Positions 9,297 through 59,212 of a DNA stretch of 64,000 nucleotides are shown here, piece after piece. The notes beneath the pieces were generated by a model. It made no database searches, had not been told where the DNA came from, and was given only the letters and a program-made list of their open reading frames with translations. Positions within the stretch are counted from its first letter, which is position 1. The number at the start of each line of letters is the position of its first letter. This DNA comes from Thiobacillus sp. (GTDB lineage Bacteria > Pseudomonadota > Gammaproteobacteria > Burkholderiales > Thiobacillaceae): NCBI GenBank assembly GCA_024235835.1, contig JACKLQ010000004.1, positions 101,132 to 165,131 of the forward strand. Reading direction: 5' to 3'. The position numbers and the translations under genes were made by a program.

Positions 9297-10280
9297 ATGA
9301 AAAAGTCCCACTTGCTTATTCCCACCGCATTGATACTTGGCCTGGCGGCCACGGCTTACGGAGCAGACGCCAGCATTGAAGCGCTCCAGACCGAGGTAAC
9401 GGTGACGAAGACCAAGGCCGATGCCATGACCAGCAGAGTTCAGTCGCTGGAGGGCGGATTGCCTGCGGAGCGGGCTGCGCGAGAGGCAGCCGATGCCCAA
9501 CTGCAAACATTGATAAATGAATTGGCGCTGACACCTGGACCCATGGGCCCCCCTGGACCGCAAGGCCCTCCCGGACCACAAGGGCCCCAAGGGCTACAAG
9601 GCCCGCCCGGGCCGGTAGGCGCGGTCGGACCTGAAGGTCCCCCCGGACCAATCGGTGCTCCCGGACCAATAGGCGCACCCGGACCCGCGGGGCCCCAGGG
9701 AGTTCAAGGAGAAATGGGGCCGATGGGGCCGGCGGGCCCGGCCGGCCCTGGGGGCGGATCGGTCTTTGTCCGCTGGGGTAACGCAAGCGCGCCCAATGGC
9801 ACCACGCTGGTCTACAGTGGCAGAACCCATAACGGGATGTACGCATTTGGTGGAAGTGGCACGCCCCTATGTCTTGCTCCGGGAGACCCGGGCCCCCACA
9901 CAGAAGCTGATGGTGCCAATTTGGACCTCGTGGCGCCGGTCGTCTTGAACACACAAGACCACGAGGCAGACATTCAGACACTTTATCCCGATAACAGTCT
10001 GTTGAATTGCGCCGTTGCCCTGGCACCAGGGCCCACGACGCTCATGTGGGGGAGTTGGAACGCACCCAGCACGGATTGGAGCGTCTTGTATACGGGTTAT
10101 GTCTTCGGAGGCATATACGACAAGGCAAACTCCACCGAGCGGGTCTGCATCGACGCTGGCCAGTTTGATGGCAGTTATCAAACAGGATGGTATGGCGCCT
10201 TGTATGTCATGAGCATCCTCTCGGATGGCGTGAACACTGGCCACCTCATCAAATGTGCCGTCATCATGAAAAACCCGTGA
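9297..10280 (+). CDS. Secreted collagen-like triple-helix repeat protein with globular C-terminal domain
   Basis: Signal peptide, then a heptad-like region. About 24 uninterrupted G-X-Y triplets occupy residues 81-152, followed by a 175-aa Cys-containing C-terminal domain. A GGAGG RBS lies 5 nt upstream. GC is lower than in the neighbours. Confidence 0.9.
9537..9752 (+). repeat. G-X-Y collagen triplet repeat (coding)
   Basis: [72 protein letters not shown] read directly from the translation. Confidence 0.95.
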
Positions 10281-50768: not shown

Positions 50769-51842
50769 TCAGAAGCGGATATGGGCGGAAGCGTTCAGGC
50801 TGTTCCGACCACCGCGCCAGTTATCGATGTGATACTTGGTGAAGGGCAGACCAGTCTTCTCGAAGAACGCGGGCCAACCGATACGGTCGATCCAGTCGTT
50901 CATGCGCTCCCAGGGACGGCCATCGGCCTTGTAGGTCGCCAGGATCTTCTTGACGATCTCGCTGACCTCGGGCCACCGCGGGGGGTTGTTCGGGATACCT
51001 GCGGCCACCAGCTTGTGGAAGGTGGGACGGGAACGGGCATTGGAGTTCTTTCCGCCAACCCAGATCGCGAACTTGGAATGCTCGGGATCGTTGATCTGCA
51101 TGGGCGGGCAGGGAGGGAAACAGGCGCCGCAGCAGATGCATTTCTTCTCGTCCACTTCCAGGGAGGGCTTGCCGTTCACCAGGGCGGGACGGATGGCCGC
51201 AACGGGGCAACGGGCCACGACGGAAGGGCGCTCGCAGATGTTGGCCACCAGATCATGGTTGATCTTGGGAGGTTTGGTGTGCTGGATCACGATGGCGATG
51301 TCGGCCTGGCCGCCGCAGTTGATCTCGCAGCAGGAGGTGGACAGCTTGACGCGGTTAGGCATCTCGCACTTGACGAACTCGTCATACAGTTCGTCCATCA
51401 GGGCCTTCACGGCGCCGGAGGCGTCGGTACCCGGGATGTCGCAGTGCAGCCAGCCCTGGGTGTGGGCGATCATGGACACGGAGTTGGCGGTGCCGCCCAC
51501 GGGGAAGCCGTTGTCGGTGAGGGACTTGATCAGGGGCTCGACCTTGGACTGGTCGGTGACCATGTACTCGATGTTTGAACGGGTGGTGAAGCGCACGTAA
51601 CCATCGGCGAACTGGTCGGCGATATCAGCCAGCTTGCGGATGGTGTAGTGGTCCATCTGGCGCTGTGTGCCGGCCTTGACGGTCCAGACTTCATCGCCAT
51701 TTTCGGCACGGTGATACAGAACACCCGGCTTGGGATGGGAGTGAAACACCCACTTGCCGTAGTTGTTCCTCATGACGGGGTGCATATAGGGCATCGGATC
51801 CGGGGTACCGGACTCGATGGTCTCGTGAGTACGTTCAGCCAT
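50769..51842 (-). CDS. dsrB: Reverse-type dissimilatory sulfite reductase beta subunit
   Basis: Siroheme/FeS region TSCCEINCGG and ferredoxin insert CPVAAIRP...CICCGACFPPCP. GGAG lies 6 nt before the ATG at 51842 (the track start is TTG). Confidence 0.93.
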   Translation of the reverse strand: MAERTHETIESGTPDPMPYMHPVMRNNYGKWVFHSHPKPGVLYHRAENGDEVWTVKAGTQRQMDHYTIRKLADIADQFADGYVRFTTRSNIEYMVTDQSKVEPLIKSLTDNGFPVGGTANSVSMIAHTQGWLHCDIPGTDASGAVKALMDELYDEFVKCEMPNRVKLSTSCCEINCGGQADIAIVIQHTKPPKINHDLVANICERPSVVARCPVAAIRPALVNGKPSLEVDEKKCICCGACFPPCPPMQINDPEHSKFAIWVGGKNSNARSRPTFHKLVAAGIPNNPPRWPEVSEIVKKILATYKADGRPWERMNDWIDRIGWPAFFEKTGLPFTKYHIDNWRGGRNSLNASAHIRF

Positions 51843-51929
51843 TCTTGTCTCCAACTAAGTGAGATCAGGATATCAATATTCACTTTTCGTGCAGCCGCCA
51901 CTAGACGGCTGCACTACTCGACTACCAGG

Positions 51930-53231
51930 TTAGGCCGCGGCCTGCTTGCGCTCGAACCACTTCTCGGCCTCCTCGTCCCAGCCGTCGGTGCGGACGTAGG
52001 GGTTGGTGCGGGGATGGATGACCATGTTGGGATCCACTTCCAGGTCCAGACCCTCGAGGAAGTTCACCAGACCGATGCGCTCGATCATCTCGCCGGTGCG
52101 CTCGTGCTCAAGAGCGTTCTCGGCGAAGAAGTCCAGGATGTTCCGGGACAGTTCGTTCAGTTTCTCGAAGTCCTCGTCAGACTCCAACTTCATGAACGGG
52201 ATGATCACGGTGCCCATGGTGGCACCAATCTTCAGCACGCTCTTGCCCCCCACCAGGATGGTGACACCCTTGTCCTTGCCGGGCAGCAGGGCGCCGGGCA
52301 TGACGTTCAGGCAGTGCATGCAACGCACGCAGTTGTGGTTGTCGATCTCCAGACAGTTGGCGTCGGACACGGCCACCTTGGTGATGCCTTCGCCAGCGGC
52401 AGCGCCGTCGTTCTTCACCAAGCGGATGGCACGGGTGGGGCACATGCTCACGACCATGTTGGTCAGGTCTTCCATGCTGTGGGCGGCCATCCAGTCGCGG
52501 GCCATTTTCTCGTCGGCCCGCATGTTGTCGCGCCAGGTGCCGATGGTGGCCATGTCAGAACGCTGGATGGAGTTCACGCAGTCGTTGGGACAGCCGGAGA
52601 ACTTGAACTTGAACTTGTAGGGCAGGGAGGGGCGGTGCATGTCATCAATGTTGTTGTTGATGACAACGCGCAGTGCACGAGCCTCATCGAAGCAGGACAT
52701 TTCGCAACGGGCGGAGCCCACGCAGGACATGGAGGTACGCAGGGCGGGGCCTGCACCACCCAGATCGAAGCCCATCTCGTTGAACTTGTCGAAGGCCTTC
52801 TGCACGTTCTCGGTCTTGATGCCCTGGAACATGATGTCGCCGGACTGGCCGTGAAACGCGATCAGCCCTGAACCACCGGTCTCGAGCCAGCCATCGCACA
52901 GCTGACGCAACAGGTCAGATGTGTAGTGCATGCCGGCGGGAGGAATGATGCGCAGGGTGTGGAACTCGGCGGCTTCGGGAAAGAGGGGCTTGTGGTTCTC
53001 ATCCTTGAGTTCGGTGAAGCGGGGAATAATGCCGCCACCATAGCCCACCACACCAACAGTGCCACCCTTCCAGTAACCGAATCGGGTGTTATAGGAAGTT
53101 TCCAGTTGACCCATCAGGTCAACCATCATGTCATTGTCTTTCGCCAGGCGCTTCAGACCAGTGACGAAGGAAGGCCAAGGGCCCTTCTCCAGATCGTCCA
53201 GGTTGGGCGTGTCGTGCATCTGCTTAGCCAT
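51930..53231 (-). CDS. dsrA: Reverse-type dissimilatory sulfite reductase alpha subunit
   Basis: CVGSARCEMSC ... GCPNDCV siroheme-FeS motif and ferredoxin insert CPTRAI...CVRCMHCLNVMP. AAGGAGA before the ATG at 53231. The oxidative type is inferred from the linked dsrEFH and dsrL. Confidence 0.93.
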   Translation of the reverse strand: MAKQMHDTPNLDDLEKGPWPSFVTGLKRLAKDNDMMVDLMGQLETSYNTRFGYWKGGTVGVVGYGGGIIPRFTELKDENHKPLFPEAAEFHTLRIIPPAGMHYTSDLLRQLCDGWLETGGSGLIAFHGQSGDIMFQGIKTENVQKAFDKFNEMGFDLGGAGPALRTSMSCVGSARCEMSCFDEARALRVVINNNIDDMHRPSLPYKFKFKFSGCPNDCVNSIQRSDMATIGTWRDNMRADEKMARDWMAAHSMEDLTNMVVSMCPTRAIRLVKNDGAAAGEGITKVAVSDANCLEIDNHNCVRCMHCLNVMPGALLPGKDKGVTILVGGKSVLKIGATMGTVIIPFMKLESDEDFEKLNELSRNILDFFAENALEHERTGEMIERIGLVNFLEGLDLEVDPNMVIHPRTNPYVRTDGWDEEAEKWFERKQAAA

Positions 53232-53391
53232 CTGTGTTTCTCCTTGAAGTCTCGAACACGGTGTCGTCACATCCAAACACTTTCCGGCGGCCACTCAGCC
53301 GATTCGGAATACGTGCCAGCATATTAGGGAGCGCTTATCCACGCCACCATCATTCCGATGGAGTAAGTGGGTCTTTCACTCGGGTAATCCC

Positions 53392-53413
53392 CACCTACCC
53401 GAACGGGTAGGTG
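53392..53413. promoter_or_regulatory. Perfect 22-bp palindrome CACCTACCCG-AA-CGGGTAGGTG in the dsrA-divergent promoter region
   Basis: Read directly. It lies 161-182 bp upstream of the dsrA ATG and 79-100 bp upstream of the 53492 ORF. Its right arm overlaps a possible -35 GTGACA for the plus-strand operon. Confidence 0.5.
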
Positions 53414-53491
53414 ACACATCCCCATGCCGGGCATACCTATACCTGAGCAAAAATGTCAGATAATAGGCATATCAACACATACTGATACATT

Positions 53492-53737: not shown

Positions 53738-54388
53738 ATGCGCCTTTTCAGCCCCGAATGGGAGGCCATAAAAGAATTCCAGCACACCGCCAGCGTGCGT
53801 GATGTCCAGTTCGATCTCATGGGCCAGGAACTGCCTGAGGATCACGGCCATATTTTATATGAGACCCTGCTGGTCCACCTGCCTTGGCTGAAGGACATAC
53901 CCGAAGCCGGCATTCACGCCATACATGGCGCCCCTTCCGGTCGAGGCACCCTGATCATCAACCGCCGCGCGAAGCTGGTTCTGCGCCTTCCCATTCTCCG
54001 CCTTGCGGATGCCCGGGTGCTTGTGGATAAGGTCATTGACCTGGGCTGTGGCGTCATCCATATCGGGGGCTTGAAAGAAAAACCCCTGATGCCATTTAAC
54101 TACTTGTATTCCCCCTTGGTGGACATGGGCACGACGGATGAAGCCGTGTTCTTGGCTAGGGTCAGGACCAGCCTGGATGAATTGGGCGTGCAGGGAGGAC
54201 TGATCCCAGGCAAGCAACGTAAAATGCATACCTCGGATGGGGACATCGGCGGCTACAGCCTGATGCTGCATGACGTCACCCTGGCCCATTCCATCACCGT
54301 TCAGGAGAAGGGAATAGGCAGGAACCACTTGATGGGCTGCGGTATTTTCGTGGCGCACAAATCGATCAAGGAAGTAGCGGAGGGCTGA
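53738..54388 (+). CDS. Cas6/Cmx6-like RAMP-superfamily protein (orphan, no CRISPR context)
   Basis: VQFDLMGQELPEDHGHILYETLL...GIHAIHG resembles the Cmx6-type Cas6 N-terminus as I remember it. The C-terminal GIGRNHLMGCGIF fits the RAMP glycine loop G-h-G-x5-G-h-G. That it is a gene is likely; the family call is from memory. Confidence 0.6.
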   Translation: MRLFSPEWEAIKEFQHTASVRDVQFDLMGQELPEDHGHILYETLLVHLPWLKDIPEAGIHAIHGAPSGRGTLIINRRAKLVLRLPILRLADARVLVDKVIDLGCGVIHIGGLKEKPLMPFNYLYSPLVDMGTTDEAVFLARVRTSLDELGVQGGLIPGKQRKMHTSDGDIGGYSLMLHDVTLAHSITVQEKGIGRNHLMGCGIFVAHKSIKEVAEG

Positions 54389-54448: not shown

Positions 54449-54781
54449 ATGGGATACATCGTTAACGGCGAAGAACTGGAAACCGACGAAGAAGGCTTCC
54501 TGACCGAGGCCAATTTCAGTGACGACGTGGTGCCGGTCATCGCCGAGTCCGAAAAGATCGCCCTGACCGACCAGCATTGGCAAGTCGTGAAGTTCATGCG
54601 TGAGCGCTATCAGGAAGACGGGCATACCCCCAACTTCCGCAACATGGTGGCCATGCTGACGGACGAGGATGACAGCGTGGACTGGAAGAAAGTCCTGTAT
54701 GAACTCTTCCCCCTGCAGCCCAACCGCCAGTCCGCCAAGGTGGCCGGCCTGCCCAAGCCCTTCGGCAAGGGCGGCTACTAA
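54449..54781 (+). CDS. DsrC/TusE-family protein lacking both arm cysteines
   Basis: Aligns with DsrC along its length (EEGFL...WQVVKFMRERYQEDG...LYELFP...GLPKP). The arm reads QSAKVAGLPKPFGKGGY, whereas DsrC reads QACKIGGLPKPTGCI. AAGGAG RBS. Confidence 0.85.
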   Translation: MGYIVNGEELETDEEGFLTEANFSDDVVPVIAESEKIALTDQHWQVVKFMRERYQEDGHTPNFRNMVAMLTDEDDSVDWKKVLYELFPLQPNRQSAKVAGLPKPFGKGGY

Positions 54782-54849
54782 GCCTTGAGTTGAGAGCCGA
54801 GCGCCGGGGCAAGCCCTGGCGCTCCACTCTCCACTCCGGCTCCACCGAC

Positions 54850-55698
54850 ATGTTTTCCAATACCCTCGTTTCCACCGAAGACCTGGCCAAGCATCTGGAC
54901 GATCCCAACTGGATCGTGTTCGACTGCCGCTTTACCCTCACCGACCCGGAAGGCGGACGCCGGCTGTACGAGAAGAACCACATCCCCGGTGCCCGCTACG
55001 CCCACCTGGATGATGACCTCTCCGCCCCCATCACGGACGCCACGGGCCGCCATCCCCTCCCCTCCCCGGAAGCCTTCGCGGAAAAGGTCTGCGGCTGGGG
55101 CGTGGGCGTCAACAAGCAGGTGGTGGTGTACGACGACAGCTTCGGCGCCATGGCCGTGCGCATGTGGTGGATGCTGCGCTGGCTGGGCCACCCGGGCGTG
55201 GCCCTGCTGGACGGCGGCTTTCCCAAGTGGCAGCGGGAACAGCGCCCTCTGACCACCGTGGTGCCGGAAACCCGCAAGGGCAGTTGCGCCTGCCTGCCGG
55301 AGCACTCCCAGATCGTGAACGCCGATGACGTCCTGCGGGCCAGCCAGACGGGTGACGCCCTCATCATCGATGCCCGCCCGGAACGCCGCTTCACCGGCGA
55401 GTACGAACCCCTGGACCTGGTGGCAGGCCACATCCCCGGCTCCATCAACTGGTCCTTCGAGGAAAATCTGGACATCGACGGCACTCTCCTGCCGCCCGAG
55501 GCCCTGCGGGAGAACTACCAGGCCCTGCTGAAAGGGCGCGCGCCATGGCAGGTTATCCATTCCTGCGGCTCCGGCGTCACTGCCTGCCACAACCTGCTGG
55601 CCATGGAGGTGGCTGGACTGCCCGGGTCCCGCCTCTATCCGGGTTCCTGGAGCGAATGGATACGCGATCCCTCCCGTCCGGTGGCCACCGGCGAATAA
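54850..55698 (+). CDS. Tandem-rhodanese sulfurtransferase (SseA/3-mercaptopyruvate-thiosulfate type)
   Basis: Two rhodanese modules with the active-site loop CGSGVTAC in the second. Start trimmed to MFSNTLVSTEDL. Confidence 0.88.
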   Translation: MFSNTLVSTEDLAKHLDDPNWIVFDCRFTLTDPEGGRRLYEKNHIPGARYAHLDDDLSAPITDATGRHPLPSPEAFAEKVCGWGVGVNKQVVVYDDSFGAMAVRMWWMLRWLGHPGVALLDGGFPKWQREQRPLTTVVPETRKGSCACLPEHSQIVNADDVLRASQTGDALIIDARPERRFTGEYEPLDLVAGHIPGSINWSFEENLDIDGTLLPPEALRENYQALLKGRAPWQVIHSCGSGVTACHNLLAMEVAGLPGSRLYPGSWSEWIRDPSRPVATGE

Positions 55699-55718: not shown

Positions 55719-56315
55719 ATGGTCAAACCCGTACGCGTACGCACATCCTGGTTCAAGCAGGAAGGTGAGCGACCCAGCCATGAGGTGGCCTCGGTGCTGG
55801 CTTCCACCGTATGGCGCCTGGCAGACAAGGCCGTGGAAAACCTGTCCAAGGCCGACTACGACATCGTTACGCCCCAGCGGGGCTTCCGCATCATCGGCGA
55901 ACTGGCCTGCTTCCTGGTCCACTATGGGGACCGCCTGGTGTACGGCCGGGTGACAGAGGAAAAACGGGCGGAAATCGTTACTGCCATTGCGCTGCGCGTG
56001 GCCGAGATCATGGAAGACAACATCCTGGACTTCACCGGTGGACAGAAAGACCCGGAATACGACTACAAGCAGGGCTTCATCGACCTGCTCAACACCCGCA
56101 TGGCGGACTACTCCGTATTTGAATTCCCTGTAGATAAGGCCAGCTTCCAGGCCCTGCGCTTTCTCTCTCTGCAAATCCGGGACGTGATGGAAGACAGCGA
56201 CAAGAGCTGGATCCAGGATCAACTCATGGACATCGAAGTCCCCGAGATGATGGGTACCGTGAAGAAGAGCGTGGACGGTTTCTACCCCCCTGCCCCTGCC
56301 GTGGACGCCCAATAG
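55719..56315 (+). CDS. Hypothetical 198-aa cytoplasmic protein
   Basis: AAGGAG RBS before the ATG at 55719. It is tightly spaced between the rhodanese and TauD-like genes. No family recognised. Confidence 0.65.
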   Translation: MVKPVRVRTSWFKQEGERPSHEVASVLASTVWRLADKAVENLSKADYDIVTPQRGFRIIGELACFLVHYGDRLVYGRVTEEKRAEIVTAIALRVAEIMEDNILDFTGGQKDPEYDYKQGFIDLLNTRMADYSVFEFPVDKASFQALRFLSLQIRDVMEDSDKSWIQDQLMDIEVPEMMGTVKKSVDGFYPPAPAVDAQ

Positions 56316-56329
56316 CCCCGGCGAACACC

Positions 56330-57259
56330 ATGATTCCAGCAGACAGCCCCTTCCACCCGGACAACGGAGAGGCATACGCCTCCTGGCGCGCTGCCAAGCT
56401 GGCTCACTATCCCACCGACCCATCCGACCTGGTGGTGCACGTGGCCGATCCTGCTCGCCTCAGCGACTCGGAATACGAGGCCCTCTGGCGATGCATCGCC
56501 AAAACCAACATGGTGGTGTACGCCACCCCCGACGGCGAAAAGGAGGACAAGTCCATCCCGCGCCTGATCGCCGAGCAGTTCGGCCTGTCCCACCTTGACG
56601 CCAACTGGCTCTCCGACGAGGACGGCATATCCAGCCTGACCCCACGGGACGATGGCACCAGCGAAGTGATGGAACGCAAGCCCGGCACGGATCCGGGCAA
56701 GCGGGGCGACTACATCCCCTACACCCACCACCGCATCCGCTGGCACACGGACGGCTACTACAACCCGCCGGAGCGGCGCATCTACGCCATGGGGCTCCAT
56801 TGCGTGCGCCAGGCGGACGCGGGGGGCGAGAACGATCTTTACGACCACGAACTGGCCTTCATCGCCCTGCGGGACGCGAACCCGGATCACATCCGCGCCC
56901 TCATGGCCGAGGACGCCATGACCATCCCCGCCCGGGTGGATGACATGGGCGTAGCCCGGGGCGATGAAACAGGGCCCGCAATGTTGGTGGACAGAGGCCA
57001 GTTGCACCTGCGTTATACCGCCCGCACCAAGAGCATCGGCTGGAAACAGGATACCGACACCCAGGCAGCCCTGGCCGCCTTGGAGGACCTGCTGGGCAGC
57101 AAGCCTTTCGGGGCCTATACCCTGAGGCTGGAACCGGGCATGGGGGTGCTGTGCAACAACGTGCTACATACCCGGGCGGGTTTCAGCGACCGGCCGGAAC
57201 ACCGGCGTCTGCTCTACCGCGCCCGCTACCACGACCACCTGCGCAACCTGCGCGGCTAG
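56330..57259 (+). CDS. TauD/TfdA-family Fe(II)/2-oxoglutarate-dependent dioxygenase-like protein
   Basis: HTDGYY (H-x-D) and a distal His in NNVLHTRAGF with a following Arg. The size fits the family. Confidence 0.7.
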   Translation: MIPADSPFHPDNGEAYASWRAAKLAHYPTDPSDLVVHVADPARLSDSEYEALWRCIAKTNMVVYATPDGEKEDKSIPRLIAEQFGLSHLDANWLSDEDGISSLTPRDDGTSEVMERKPGTDPGKRGDYIPYTHHRIRWHTDGYYNPPERRIYAMGLHCVRQADAGGENDLYDHELAFIALRDANPDHIRALMAEDAMTIPARVDDMGVARGDETGPAMLVDRGQLHLRYTARTKSIGWKQDTDTQAALAALEDLLGSKPFGAYTLRLEPGMGVLCNNVLHTRAGFSDRPEHRRLLYRARYHDHLRNLRG

Positions 57260-57269
57260 GCTTTCCTGT

Positions 57270-57953
57270 TCAGTTCCGCTTGCCGTCCAGGCCGGGGCTG
57301 AGCCTGTGCTCCACTGCAAACACCGCCGCCTCCACCCGGGATGACAGGTTCAACTTGGCCAGGATGTGGCGCACGTGGAGCTTCACCGTGTCGTAGCTGA
57401 TGTCCAGCTGGCGGGCGATGGCCTTGTTGCTCTCGCCCCGGGCCAGATGGGTGAGGATCTCCCGCTCCCGTTGGGTCAGGGTCTCCAGCAGGGGCACATC
57501 GCTGTTGCCCTTGTTGTCCAGTAGTTTCACCAGTTTCGCGGTCATGGCGGGGGCCACCACGGTTTCGCCCCTGGCCGCCCGGGCGATGGCGTCCAGCACC
57601 TCGTCCGGCTCCATGCTCTTGAGGAGATAGCCGTTGGCGCCGGAGCGCAGGGCCCGGGCCATGTCCTCTTCCGCCTCGCTCACGGTGAGCATCAGCACGG
57701 GCAGGGTGAACCCCTCGCCCCGCAGTTCCTGCATCACGTTGATGCCGTCCGTCCCTCCCAGATTCAGGTCCAGCAACAGCACATCCGGCCTGTGCTGGCG
57801 CAGCAGGTCGGGCACTGCCTCGGGGTTTCCCGTGATGGCCGCCACGCTTACGGCACCTTCACGCTCCAGCAGCTCCGCCAGGCCCTTGCGGAACAGGGTA
57901 TGGTCATCCACCAGGACGATGTGGAGCACGGTGGACGGGGCGGCTATGGTCAT
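57270..57953 (-). CDS. NarL/FixJ-type response regulator (REC + LuxR HTH)
   Basis: VLVDDH...DVLLLDLNLGG receiver domain. C-terminal LTQREREILTHLARGESNKAIARQLDISYDTVKLHVRHILAKL. Confidence 0.92.
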   Translation of the reverse strand: MTIAAPSTVLHIVLVDDHTLFRKGLAELLEREGAVSVAAITGNPEAVPDLLRQHRPDVLLLDLNLGGTDGINVMQELRGEGFTLPVLMLTVSEAEEDMARALRSGANGYLLKSMEPDEVLDAIARAARGETVVAPAMTAKLVKLLDNKGNSDVPLLETLTQREREILTHLARGESNKAIARQLDISYDTVKLHVRHILAKLNLSSRVEAAVFAVEHRLSPGLDGKRN

Positions 57954-59212
57954 GACTTCTCTTCCACTGCATGGCGTGAGGGGAAGGTAAGACGCACTAT
58001 GGTGCCCCCCGCTGGCCGGCTCTCGATGGAAAGGCGACCGTTCAGCTTGGCGGCCCGTTCCCGCATGATGGTCAGGCCGAAGCTCTTGCCCATGTTGGAA
58101 GTGGCGTTCTGCTGCAGACCCACGCCGTCATCCGCCACGTTCACAACGTACTGGTCGTCCTGAAGGTCCAGGGTTACCACCACGTGACGGGCCCGGGCGT
58201 GCTTGCAGATGTTGTAGAGGGACTCCTGGATGATGTGGTAGACCTGAATCTCGTCTTCGGGGGCCAGCACCACGTCCTGGGCCACGTTCAGGAAGTCCAC
58301 ATCGGCATTGGCCTTCTTGCTGAAGCTCTCGGCCAGTTCCTGCAGGGCCGGCACCAGTCCCCGGGGGTCGATGCGATCCCTGAACTGGGTGATCAGGTTG
58401 CGCAGCTCCGAATAGGCCATGTCCACGGCCTCCTCCACGTCGCCCAGGTAGCGGTTGGCCTTGGCCTCGTCGCCATCCACCATGGCCTCGCTCAACACGG
58501 ACAGGCGCATCTTGGCGTAAGCCAGGGTCTGGGCCAGTGAATCGTGGATCTGGTTGGCCAGCATGGTGCGTTCGTTCATCAGGGAGATACGCATGTTCTC
58601 GCGGGTGAGTCGGCTGTTCTCCAGGGCCATGCCCAAGTGTTCGCTGATGGAGTTGAACAGGTAGCGGATGTCCTCCGGAAGGGGCTCCGGATTGTCCATG
58701 AACAGGTTGTAAACCCCCATTACCTTGCCCTTGTGGCGCATGGGCACGGCGTAGACCGTGCTGCAGTGCTGGGCGTAATACAGATGGCGCACCTGCTTCT
58801 GGCACACCTCCATGACGCCCTCAAAATGGGCGCTTTGCGTCAGAGTAGCCTTGCCGCAGATGCCACATTCCAGGGGGACGTAACGCTCCCGCTCCACCAG
58901 GGCGGGGGCAAGGCCGATGGAACCGGCCAGACGCAGATGGGCCCCATCGGCGGTGAGTACCCGCACTGCACCGGCCCTGGCTCCGGAGATGCGCACCATG
59001 ATCTCCAGGAAGCGCATGAGCATCTGTTCCGTGTTGGCATCGGAGTTCATGCTGCTGGCGATCTCCGCCAGCACCTCGATGACAGGAAGACGATCTCCCT
59101 CGGCTTGCATTCCACCGTCGGGGATGGACGTGCGGCTGATACTGGTGACAGGAATGTTTTGGACGTCCACGAACTGGCTCTGGTGGCTGTGGCGGGTGAG
59201 GCAATTCCACAT
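57950..59212 (-). CDS. Soluble GAF-domain sensor histidine kinase (HisKA_3/NarX-type transmitter)
   Basis: No TM segments. A GAF-like N-terminal half carries C-x2-C-x21-C-x13-C. H-box HDSLAQTLAY and an HATPase_c domain follow. It overlaps the regulator gene by ATGA. Confidence 0.85.
   Translation of the reverse strand: MWNCLTRHSHQSQFVDVQNIPVTSISRTSIPDGGMQAEGDRLPVIEVLAEIASSMNSDANTEQMLMRFLEIMVRISGARAGAVRVLTADGAHLRLAGSIGLAPALVERERYVPLECGICGKATLTQSAHFEGVMEVCQKQVRHLYYAQHCSTVYAVPMRHKGKVMGVYNLFMDNPEPLPEDIRYLFNSISEHLGMALENSRLTRENMRISLMNERTMLANQIHDSLAQTLAYAKMRLSVLSEAMVDGDEAKANRYLGDVEEAVDMAYSELRNLITQFRDRIDPRGLVPALQELAESFSKKANADVDFLNVAQDVVLAPEDEIQVYHIIQESLYNICKHARARHVVVTLDLQDDQYVVNVADDGVGLQQNATSNMGKSFGLTIMRERAAKLNGRLSIESRPAGGTIVRLTFPSRHAVEEKS

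Follow-up and report, generated by a model that had tools for sequence, protein, structure and literature searches.

A Cas6 gene is a core member of a conserved accessory module divergent from dsrAB in sulfur-oxidizing Beta- and Gammaproteobacteria

A Cmx6-type Cas6 encoded beside dsrA in Thiobacillus

A 64-kb stretch of DNA from a metagenome-assembled genome (MAG) of Thiobacillus sp. [quoted passage not shown] An initial annotation, made from the sequence of the window, had described this gene as an orphan Cas6/Cmx6-like gene standing head-to-head with dsrA. The family assignment held up in profile searches, and the operon does diverge from dsrA; the gene strictly head-to-head with dsrA, however, is the small one in front of cas6, which encodes a protein of family DUF6967. 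The 3-nt gap between these two genes that had been pointed out is there (the DUF6967 open reading frame [ORF] ends in TGA, followed by 3 nt and the ATG of cas6), as are the cysteine-less DsrC paralogue and the rhodanese downstream (Table 1).

The ORF of cas6 has an ATG start, and its 216-aa product contains both motifs on which the initial annotation was based, VRDVQFDLMGQELPEDHGHILYETL... and the glycine-rich loop GIGRNHLMGCGIF. The product matches the Pfam family PF09559 (Cas6) with 171.4 bits (E 2.8e-50; cutoff 26.7 bits) over residues 22-209 and model positions 2-191 of 191, and the NCBIfam model TIGR02807 (cas6_cmx6, type I-MYXAN Cas6/Cmx6) with 144.7 bits, above its equivalog cutoff of 98.85 bits. 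The PADLOC Cas6 models match as well (E 2.6e-51). Because the profile matches begin at residue 20-22, the N-terminal extension of about 20 aa that had been noticed earlier is real, and residues 1-19 are kept in the closest clade. The exact protein is present in NCBI as [quoted passage not shown].

An AlphaFold2 model of the protein, calculated from an alignment of 24 homologs (pLDDT 89.7, pTM 0.85), shows the tandem ferredoxin-like/RRM (RAMP) fold that had been foreseen for it. The best Foldseek matches of this model are 8fcu_B and 8fcj_B (TM 0.82-0.84, root-mean-square deviation ~2 Å), followed by the Cas6 proteins of Pyrococcus and Thermus and then by Cas6e. The closest solved structure by sequence is likewise 8fcj_B (E 1e-15), the Cas6 of a type I-B CRISPR-associated-transposon Cascade, to which the glycine-rich loop region aligns nearly residue for residue (QE-GIG...M-CGIF). 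The loop is of the type G-h-G-x5-G-h-G, and G194, G200, C201, and G202 are invariant across the 24 homologs, which share 42 invariant columns at 56-85% identity. Many arginine and lysine residues are conserved besides the loop. Compared with 27 orthologs, the median ratio of nonsynonymous to synonymous substitution rates (dN/dS) is 0.26, with dS near saturation, indicating that the gene is under purifying selection. By profile and by predicted structure, then, the ORF encodes a bona fide Cmx6-type Cas6.

The module is conserved across two proteobacterial classes

A scan of one genome per species returned at least 589 loci with relatives of this Cas6, and the best 80, with 38-71% identity, were used for synteny. 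Clustering at 50% leaves ~975 representatives of the family, and with a profile built from diverse members, 1,598 clusters at 90% are recovered. Members of the clade are found in Chromatiales, Beggiatoa, Acidiferrobacterales, and Burkholderiales, including Thiobacillaceae. The survey of dsr synteny that had been called for gave a uniform picture: as far as the contigs reach, all 80 species loci have the same order, in which dsrA and dsrB point one way and the genes for DUF6967, Cas6, the cysteine-less DsrC paralogue (DsrC'), a rhodanese, a protein of ~200 aa, and a TauD-like protein point the other. These loci include those of the cultured strains Thiobacillus denitrificans DSM 12475, Sulfuriferula multivorans, Sulfuriferula sp. 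GW1, and Parasulfuritortus cantonensis. The DUF6967 gene lies directly 5' of cas6 in 79 of the 80 loci, and also in L092-L099 from other subgroups, while the DsrC' gene lies directly 3' of it in almost all loci sampled; no DsrC' gene was found in L036, L039, and L040.

Each tree-resolved subgroup was sampled (G2, G3, G5, G8, and G9), bringing the set to ~100 loci from Beta- and Gammaproteobacteria. Subgroups G2, G3, G5, and G8 carry DUF6967-Cas6-DsrC'-TusA-~200 aa-TauD, with TusA taking the place of the rhodanese in L093, L095-L097, and L099. The module has dsrA(B) upstream in L092, L093, L095, and L096; the contigs of L098 and L099 are too short, and in L097 the upstream gene is on the plus strand and is not dsrA. 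The arrangement differs in G9 (Acidiferrobacterales and Chromatiales), where dsrCHFE-BA diverges from TauD-~65 aa-~235 aa-Cas6-DsrC', followed by a rhodanese or CarS-like gene. Here, the TauD-like gene comes first, and the slot of the betaproteobacterial DUF6967 is held by the ~235-aa protein, which has no detectable family and is preceded by a conserved protein of 62-71 aa. Its gene is coupled to cas6, with a gap of 1-2 nt in L089 and L100 and of 72 nt in L090/L091. Neither BLAST nor Pfam revealed homology of the gammaproteobacterial 62-71-aa and 234-236-aa proteins to DUF6967 or to the ~200-aa protein. Outside the 80-locus set, linkage to dsrAB was found in L089-L093, L095, L096, and L100, and across all dsr-divergent loci the identity of Cas6 falls to ~30%. 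In sulfur-oxidizing Beta- and Gammaproteobacteria, the accessory module divergent from dsrAB is conserved and has cas6 as a fixed member of its core.

Two further observations concern individual loci. Genes for DUF6866 and for a 2-oxoglutarate-Fe(II) oxygenase recur near the gammaproteobacterial modules (L089, L090/L091, and L100). The Cas6 frame of P. cantonensis LSR1 (L034, 9683..10330) is broken after ~175 aa, with the remainder in another frame; this may reflect an error in a long-read "tig" assembly that shifted the frame, or the gene may truly be a pseudogene in this cultured strain.

No CRISPR array or other cas gene accompanies Cas6 in the loci examined

As the initial annotation had claimed, the gene stands alone. 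No CRISPR-like array was detected in the window by TRF or a direct-repeat search, no Rfam family matched it at gathering thresholds, and when Cas models (PADLOC) were run on the 133 ORFs of at least 140 aa, the cas6 ORF was the sole match. The other ORFs of the window encode nir/heme d1, dsr, and housekeeping functions. Searches with canonical Cas proteins (tblastn) and for arrays were extended to ~90 related loci of up to 20 kb, with locus L087, which was detected, as a positive control; no array or canonical I-MYXAN cas gene was found in these loci, and none of the related loci scanned had either within ~10 kb of Cas6. When the intergenic region and the operon of the window and of T. denitrificans were searched permissively against Rfam, the matches were at chance level only. 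One of these, to CRISPR-DR33 (16 bits, E 5.3), was discarded as it falls inside the DUF6967 coding region.

A few window ORFs drew side matches. One has a weak match to the PADLOC model "CARF3--CARF" (E 1.5e-8), and others match radical-SAM-type models (pVip, mads), probably through generic domain similarity. The ORF at 9297..10280 holds at least 8 in-frame 18-nt repeats (9537..9709) that encode a collagen-like Gly-Pro-X tract.

Cas6 of the dsr-linked clade differs from CRISPR-linked Cmx6

Canonical Cmx6 (TIGR02807, PF09559; PDB 8FCJ/8FCU chain B) and the Cas6 of the window share family, fold, and glycine-rich loop. Unlike canonical Cmx6, the dsr-linked protein is encoded without an array or cas3/5/7/8/1/2/4, and has DUF6967 and DsrC' as partners beside dsrAB. 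The CRISPR-linked Cmx6 proteins of cyanobacterial plasmids, which are encoded in cas6-cas3-cas8-cas7-cas5-cas4/1-cas2 operons with arrays, have 24-29% identity to the dsr-linked clade. The latter also has conserved features of its own that canonical Cmx6 does not share, namely the N-terminal extension, LMLH(D/G), and a C-terminal HKS(I/A).

The histidine of the DHG motif, His36, is a candidate catalytic residue. It sits at the start of helix 1, where the catalytic histidine of Cas6e lies, and is invariant in the close clade of the window. Its counterpart in the alignment is the histidine of the DHG motif in basal Cmx6 representatives that are putatively canonical and that the tree groups with the solved I-B Cas6; in that structure itself (8fcj_B) the residue is an asparagine. 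With this asparagine, and with asparagine, serine, or threonine at the position in the T. denitrificans group, His36 was ruled out as a universal catalytic residue. Since the histidine is replaced in other subclades, the universal activity is probably binding rather than cleavage: judging from these alignments, RNA binding is probably common to the clade, and cleavage has possibly been retained in the clade of the window.

Other genes of the module

The small protein encoded in front of Cas6, DUF6967, has 674 homologs, every one of them annotated as hypothetical, and is more conserved than Cas6 (dN/dS ~0.08). The best Foldseek matches of its AlphaFold2 model (pLDDT 84) are PUR-alpha/PUR repeats, PC4 homologues, and Whirly, at TM ~0.6 and E 0.2-1, which is below significance. 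Proteins with PUR, PC4, and Whirly folds bind single-stranded nucleic acids. This weak likeness of the model is a lead rather than a result. A Rosetta-stone test for fusions of Cas6 with DUF6967 was negative: the long Cas6 homologs P0168, P0218, P0156, P0241, and P0002 have no DUF6967 domain, and their extra length comes from upstream start calls.

The DsrC-like protein directly downstream lacks both C-terminal cysteines and has the C-terminus ...AGLPKPFGKGGY, ending in ...GKGGY, whereas the true DsrC of the same loci ends in C-x10-C-[IV] (the PTGC[IV] arm). The ...GKGGY end is invariant from Beta- to Gammaproteobacteria, and by sequence DsrC' is a distinct DsrC subfamily. The Gly-Gly near its end recalls, speculatively, the ThiS/MoaD-type carriers that need C-terminal processing.

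Right after the module, at 57270..59212 on the minus strand, lie genes for a NarL/LuxR-type response regulator and a GAF-HisKA_3 histidine kinase. The pair is adjacent or nearby in ~10 close relatives (among them L009, L010, L014, L018, L024, L030, L032, and L033). The response regulator is a candidate for a regulator acting at the conserved palindrome described below.

Table 1. Features of the dsr-linked Cas6 locus, in coordinates of the window
Feature	Position	Strand	Basis and remarks
Cas6 (Cmx6 family), 216 aa	53738..54388	+	DHG at residues 35-37, loop GIGRNHLMGCGIF at 192-204, clade-typical H207-K208-S209
DUF6967 protein, 80 aa	53492..53734	+	PF22295, 95.3 bits (cutoff 27); four beta strands and a long C-terminal helix
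DsrC', cysteine-less DsrC/TusE-family paralogue, 110 aa	54449..54781	+	Pfam DsrC 107 bits, TIGR03342 87 bits
Two-domain rhodanese (3-mercaptopyruvate sulfurtransferase-like)	54850..55698	+	Two Pfam Rhodanese domains; NF008557 162 bits, below cutoff
Conserved ~200-aa protein	55719..56315	+	No Pfam/NCBIfam match; kept in the 80 species loci and L093-L099
TauD/TfdA-family Fe(II)/2-oxoglutarate dioxygenase-like protein	56330..57259	+	Pfam TauD, E 1.1e-15
dsrA (reverse-type dissimilatory sulfite reductase alpha)	51930..53231	-	ORF list; NIR_SIR Pfam families in identical contigs; synteny
dsrB	50769..51854	-	dsrEFHC... further downstream, minus strand
Divergent dsrA/DUF6967 intergenic region, 260 nt	53232..53491		Alignments
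Palindrome/hairpin CCTACCCGAACGGGTAGG, core CTACCC-N4-GGG	53394..53411		Single copy in the window, one per locus
Box B CCATCATTCCGATGG (CCATCATTC...)	53347..53361		Conserved in the close clade; CCATCATTCTCATGG in the T. denitrificans group
Candidate dsrA -10 element, TAATAT	53326..53321	-	Conserved in 28 sequences; putative promoter assignment
Covarying stem-loop at the start of the dsrA leader	53309..53282	-	~10 nt after the candidate -10; 28 sequences
Intercistronic stem-loop in the DsrC'-to-rhodanese spacer	54781..54841	+	Minimum free energy -42.5 kcal/mol, z = -7.1; no U-tract after it

Conserved elements between dsrA and the module

The intergenic region was aligned for 28 close (tier-1) loci and for 24 loci of the T. 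denitrificans group. Its most conspicuous element is the hairpin that the initial annotation had placed at 53392..53413; the element proved to be conserved, specific in position, and unique in the window, although the perfect palindrome is shorter by 2 nt on either side (Table 1). In 1.47 Mb of loci, the exact core matches 37 times, always 200-700 nt upstream of the Cas6 start, and nowhere else on that strand. A relaxed core is found at the expected place in 64 of 89 loci, and related palindromes occur in distant subgroups (L095, L099, L090, and L089). The CTAC/GTAG bases of the stem are spaced by 10, 12, or 13 nt depending on the clade, which suits a hairpin better than a rigid dimer operator.

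On the dsrA side, the leader stem-loop covaries between species (UUCCG...CGGAA versus CCCGU...ACGGG) and is probably a 5'-terminal stabilizing hairpin of the dsrA mRNA. A scan with the strict sigma-70 consensus found no match inside the intergenic region of the window, whereas a relaxed scan of the orthologous regions gave moderate candidates in the close clade and a good one in 21 of the 24 loci of the T. denitrificans group. Loci of this group (L042-L085) have, ~100 nt upstream of DUF6967, a highly conserved block, GTATTAAAATATTGTTGCAAACGCAAG, then CCCCTG-N7-CAGGG, then TTGAAAT. The promoter candidate (CCACA, a 17-nt spacer, and TAAAAT) puts this hairpin at the predicted 5' end of the operon mRNA. 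Hairpin and TTGAAAT bear a loose likeness to the end of the canonical I-MYXAN repeat, GGCGTTGAGCAC (...GCCGTAAGGCGTTGAGCAC), with no match to a CRISPR-DR family, and a similar element, CCCCTG...CAGGGGG(C/T)TGATAT, is found in L092 and L093.

A second conserved structure lies within the operon. A strong hairpin or terminator follows the DsrC' gene in 82% of loci and follows cas6 in 5%, so that the core transcription unit looks like small protein-Cas6-DsrC'. The spacer between DsrC' and the rhodanese (in the window, L007-L034, L045, L090, and L100) invariably contains a long and very stable stem-loop, which keeps its architecture, with sequences that are unrelated between species. Its arms consist of inverted tandem heptamers in several species (GGTAGCN x4 ... 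GCTACNN x4; GTGAGGC ... GCCTCAC; GTGACGA ... TCGTCAC), and a GATACAA heptamer is present in the arms of L090. In L045 and L100, the stem-loop is followed by a T-run, as in an intrinsic terminator.

A proposed role for the dsr-linked Cas6

In the data examined, the gene matches RAMP models, its predicted fold is of the RRM type, no CRISPR locus that could own it was found, and its linkage to dsr genes is conserved. We therefore consider it very probable that this is an exapted Cas6 that works outside CRISPR and is dedicated to dsr, which supports the suggestion of the initial annotation that a Cas6 fold was recruited in connection with sulfur oxidation. What it does there can be stated with much less assurance; for a regulatory role at the RNA level, on dsr or accessory transcripts, we put the chances at even or slightly lower.

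If Cas6 does act on RNA, its target would be a structured RNA from its own locus, which it would bind and, in the clade of the window, possibly cut at the base of the hairpin. Such binding or cutting could control the stability, processing, or translation of dsr or accessory transcripts, with the translationally coupled DUF6967 acting on the structured RNA together with Cas6 and DsrC'. DsrC' and the rhodanese or TusA sulfur carrier might couple this action to the sulfane-sulfur state of the cell. Our first preference for the RNA site would be the CTACCC-N4-GGG hairpin, provided it is transcribed; next would come the hairpins of the 5' leaders (the dsrA leader and, at the 5' end of the operon mRNA, the T. 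denitrificans-group hairpin with UUGAAAU), and last the very stable stem-loop after DsrC'. Cas6 proteins can recognize a stem-loop by shape rather than sequence (PMC11300857). The most specific form of the proposal is a riboregulator that would target one "solo repeat" hairpin in the divergent leader. Cas6, a PUR-like partner, and DsrC' as sensor or adaptor of the sulfur state would bind to this hairpin, with cleavage added in the clade that has the histidine, and would so set dsr expression. We offer this form tentatively, and rather doubt that it is correct in every part.

Parts of this mechanism have counterparts elsewhere. In synthetic biology, Csy4/Cas6f is employed to cut hairpins inserted into the leader of an mRNA or between its cistrons. 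In those devices, one hairpin in a leader or spacer sets expression, as proposed here; the devices are artificial, and we found no description of a natural counterpart fixed in a chromosome. For Allochromatium vinosum, the Dahl laboratory has reportedly described post-transcriptional control by DsrR and DsrS and binding of DsrC upstream of dsrA. There, too, dsr control would have post-transcriptional inputs and proposed regulators of the DsrC family, which the module described here matches with the cysteine-less DsrC'; we know of no Cas6 or DUF6967 implicated in that work. DsrEFH and DsrC are, moreover, homologues of proteins of the Tus relay (TusA-TusBCD-TusE-MnmA), which serves the formation of 2-thiouridine in tRNA. 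The module resembles this relay in pairing a DsrC/TusE-family protein and TusA or a rhodanese with a putative RNA-binding partner, but differs from it in that DsrC' lacks the sulfur-transfer cysteines and the partner is Cas6 instead of a thiouridylase.

Several points weigh against a role in RNA regulation or against particular versions of it. That Cas6 binds, processes, or regulates RNA at all is something we infer from its family membership, and the protein, with an isoelectric point of 6.45, is overall not basic. At the position of His36, the T. denitrificans group has N/S/T, and Y/H/N occur elsewhere; because of this replacement outside the close clade, cleavage cannot be the conserved function. 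Nor is a PUR-like partner universal, since Gammaproteobacteria replace DUF6967 with unrelated small proteins. None of the intergenic hairpins matches a curated CRISPR repeat family. The sequence of the CTACCC palindrome is conserved without covariation, and an attempt to assign it to a strand by G-U wobble changes was uninformative (2 variants versus 2). In the clade of the window, the best promoter candidates put the palindrome upstream of both divergent starts, the classic position of an operator. The palindrome may act as an RNA hairpin or as a DNA operator, and its position between divergent promoters fits an operator equally well.

Alternative explanations

One alternative keeps the Cas6 fold and dispenses with RNA. 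Cas6 would then serve as a subunit, structural or chaperone-like, in a complex for sulfur trafficking, docking, for example, the C-terminal arm of DsrC', and the palindrome would be an ordinary operator. The conserved neighbors, all of them sulfur-relay-type or enzyme-type and none an RNA enzyme, would suit such a role, as would the adjacency of Cas6 and DsrC' in nearly all sampled loci, the dispensability of the putative catalytic histidine across the clade, the location of the palindrome between candidate divergent promoters, and the acidic-neutral isoelectric point. We nevertheless regard it as unlikely: we know of no RAMP/Cas6-fold protein that works without RNA, few parts of the protein are as conserved as the glycine-rich loop and its flanks, also in comparison with canonical Cmx6, and the co-translated DUF6967 has, if its weak fold likeness is a guide, a fold typical of single-stranded nucleic-acid binders. 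By analogy with the Tus relay, Cas6 could also be the RNA-recognition subunit of a sulfur- or oxygen-dependent RNA modification system, with the TauD-like dioxygenase or the rhodanese as catalyst. Such a system would account for a module that joins a TusE/DsrC-family protein, TusA or a rhodanese, a 2-oxoglutarate dioxygenase-like enzyme, and two putative nucleic-acid binders, and DsrC' does score 80 bits on the TusE model, below its cutoff. It is made improbable by the missing persulfide-carrying cysteines of DsrC', by the strict linkage to dsrAB and not to translation genes, and by the lack of likeness, in Pfam and NCBIfam, to known RNA-modifying dioxygenases or thiolases.

The remaining explanations tie the gene to CRISPR, present or past. 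Stand-alone cas6 genes outside cas operons are known to act on distant arrays (PMC5965381), and our view of this MAG is limited to the window, so Cas6 might process pre-crRNA from an array elsewhere in the genome, with its position beside dsr being incidental. Stand-alone Cas6 proteins of that kind serve the arrays of their own genome and are not part of a conserved non-CRISPR operon, whereas the dsr-linked Cas6 is encoded in a sulfur-oxidation module in hundreds of species. The same dsr-divergent module recurs in ~100 loci of two proteobacterial classes down to ~30% Cas6 identity, the loci scanned have no array or cas gene within ~10 kb, and the clade is set apart from CRISPR-linked Cmx6 both by low identity and by its own extension, LMLH(D/G), and HKS features. 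Ownership by a CRISPR locus elsewhere in the MAG is very unlikely because of the clade-wide synteny with dsr, and we consider a CRISPR role in trans close to refuted. Decay of a lost CRISPR-Cas locus, leaving a remnant without current function, could explain why cas6 is the only cas-family gene in the window and why its frame is broken in P. cantonensis, although that break comes from a long-read "tig" assembly and could be an artefact of sequencing. A decaying gene would be at odds with a dN/dS of ~0.26 over 27 pairs, with the invariant columns among the 24 homologs, and with retention at a fixed operon position across at least 589 genomes of different species; selection and synteny refute this explanation, and we give it practically no weight. 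An exapted, dsr-dedicated Cas6 is the explanation we retain.

Annotation, novelty, and significance

The family of the protein is known and already annotated; its exaptation and strict tie to sulfur oxidation are new and apparently undescribed. In the full text of the literature covered, outside of which most subscription journals fall, we found no papers on DUF6967, none that tie Cas6/Cmx6 to dsr, DsrC, or T. denitrificans, and none on a non-CRISPR lineage of Cas6; papers that hold both Cas6 and dsr terms treat the two separately. Because its members score above the TIGR02807 equivalog cutoff, NCBI PGAP and JGI systematically name the dsr-linked clade "type I-MYXAN CRISPR-associated protein Cas6/Cmx6" or "CRISPR-associated protein Cas6". 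This is an annotation artefact at the level of a family, affecting thousands of proteins, which inflates CRISPR counts in sulfur oxidizers and masks the real association with dsr.

Known exaptations of Cas proteins serve transposition, in CRISPR-associated transposons, and plasmid competition, in type IV systems. If our interpretation is correct, a large, vertically conserved lineage of Cas6 outside CRISPR, in core energy metabolism, would be exaptation of a new class, and would give the Cas6-hairpin devices of synthetic biology a precedent in nature. Should the riboregulator proposal hold as well, it would be the first case on record in which an RNA-processing enzyme of CRISPR was domesticated for neither defense nor transposition, and the domesticated protein would set the expression of the central enzyme of sulfur oxidation in hundreds of environmentally dominant sulfur oxidizers. 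The six-gene module is conserved near dsrAB in Thiobacillus, Sulfuricella, Sulfuriferula, Acidiferrobacterales, Chromatiales, and Beggiatoa-type organisms, and the predicted nucleic-acid-binding folds of two of its core members, of which that of DUF6967 is a weak likeness, make the regulation of sulfur oxidation directly testable in strains that can be cultured and are open to genetics, such as T. denitrificans.

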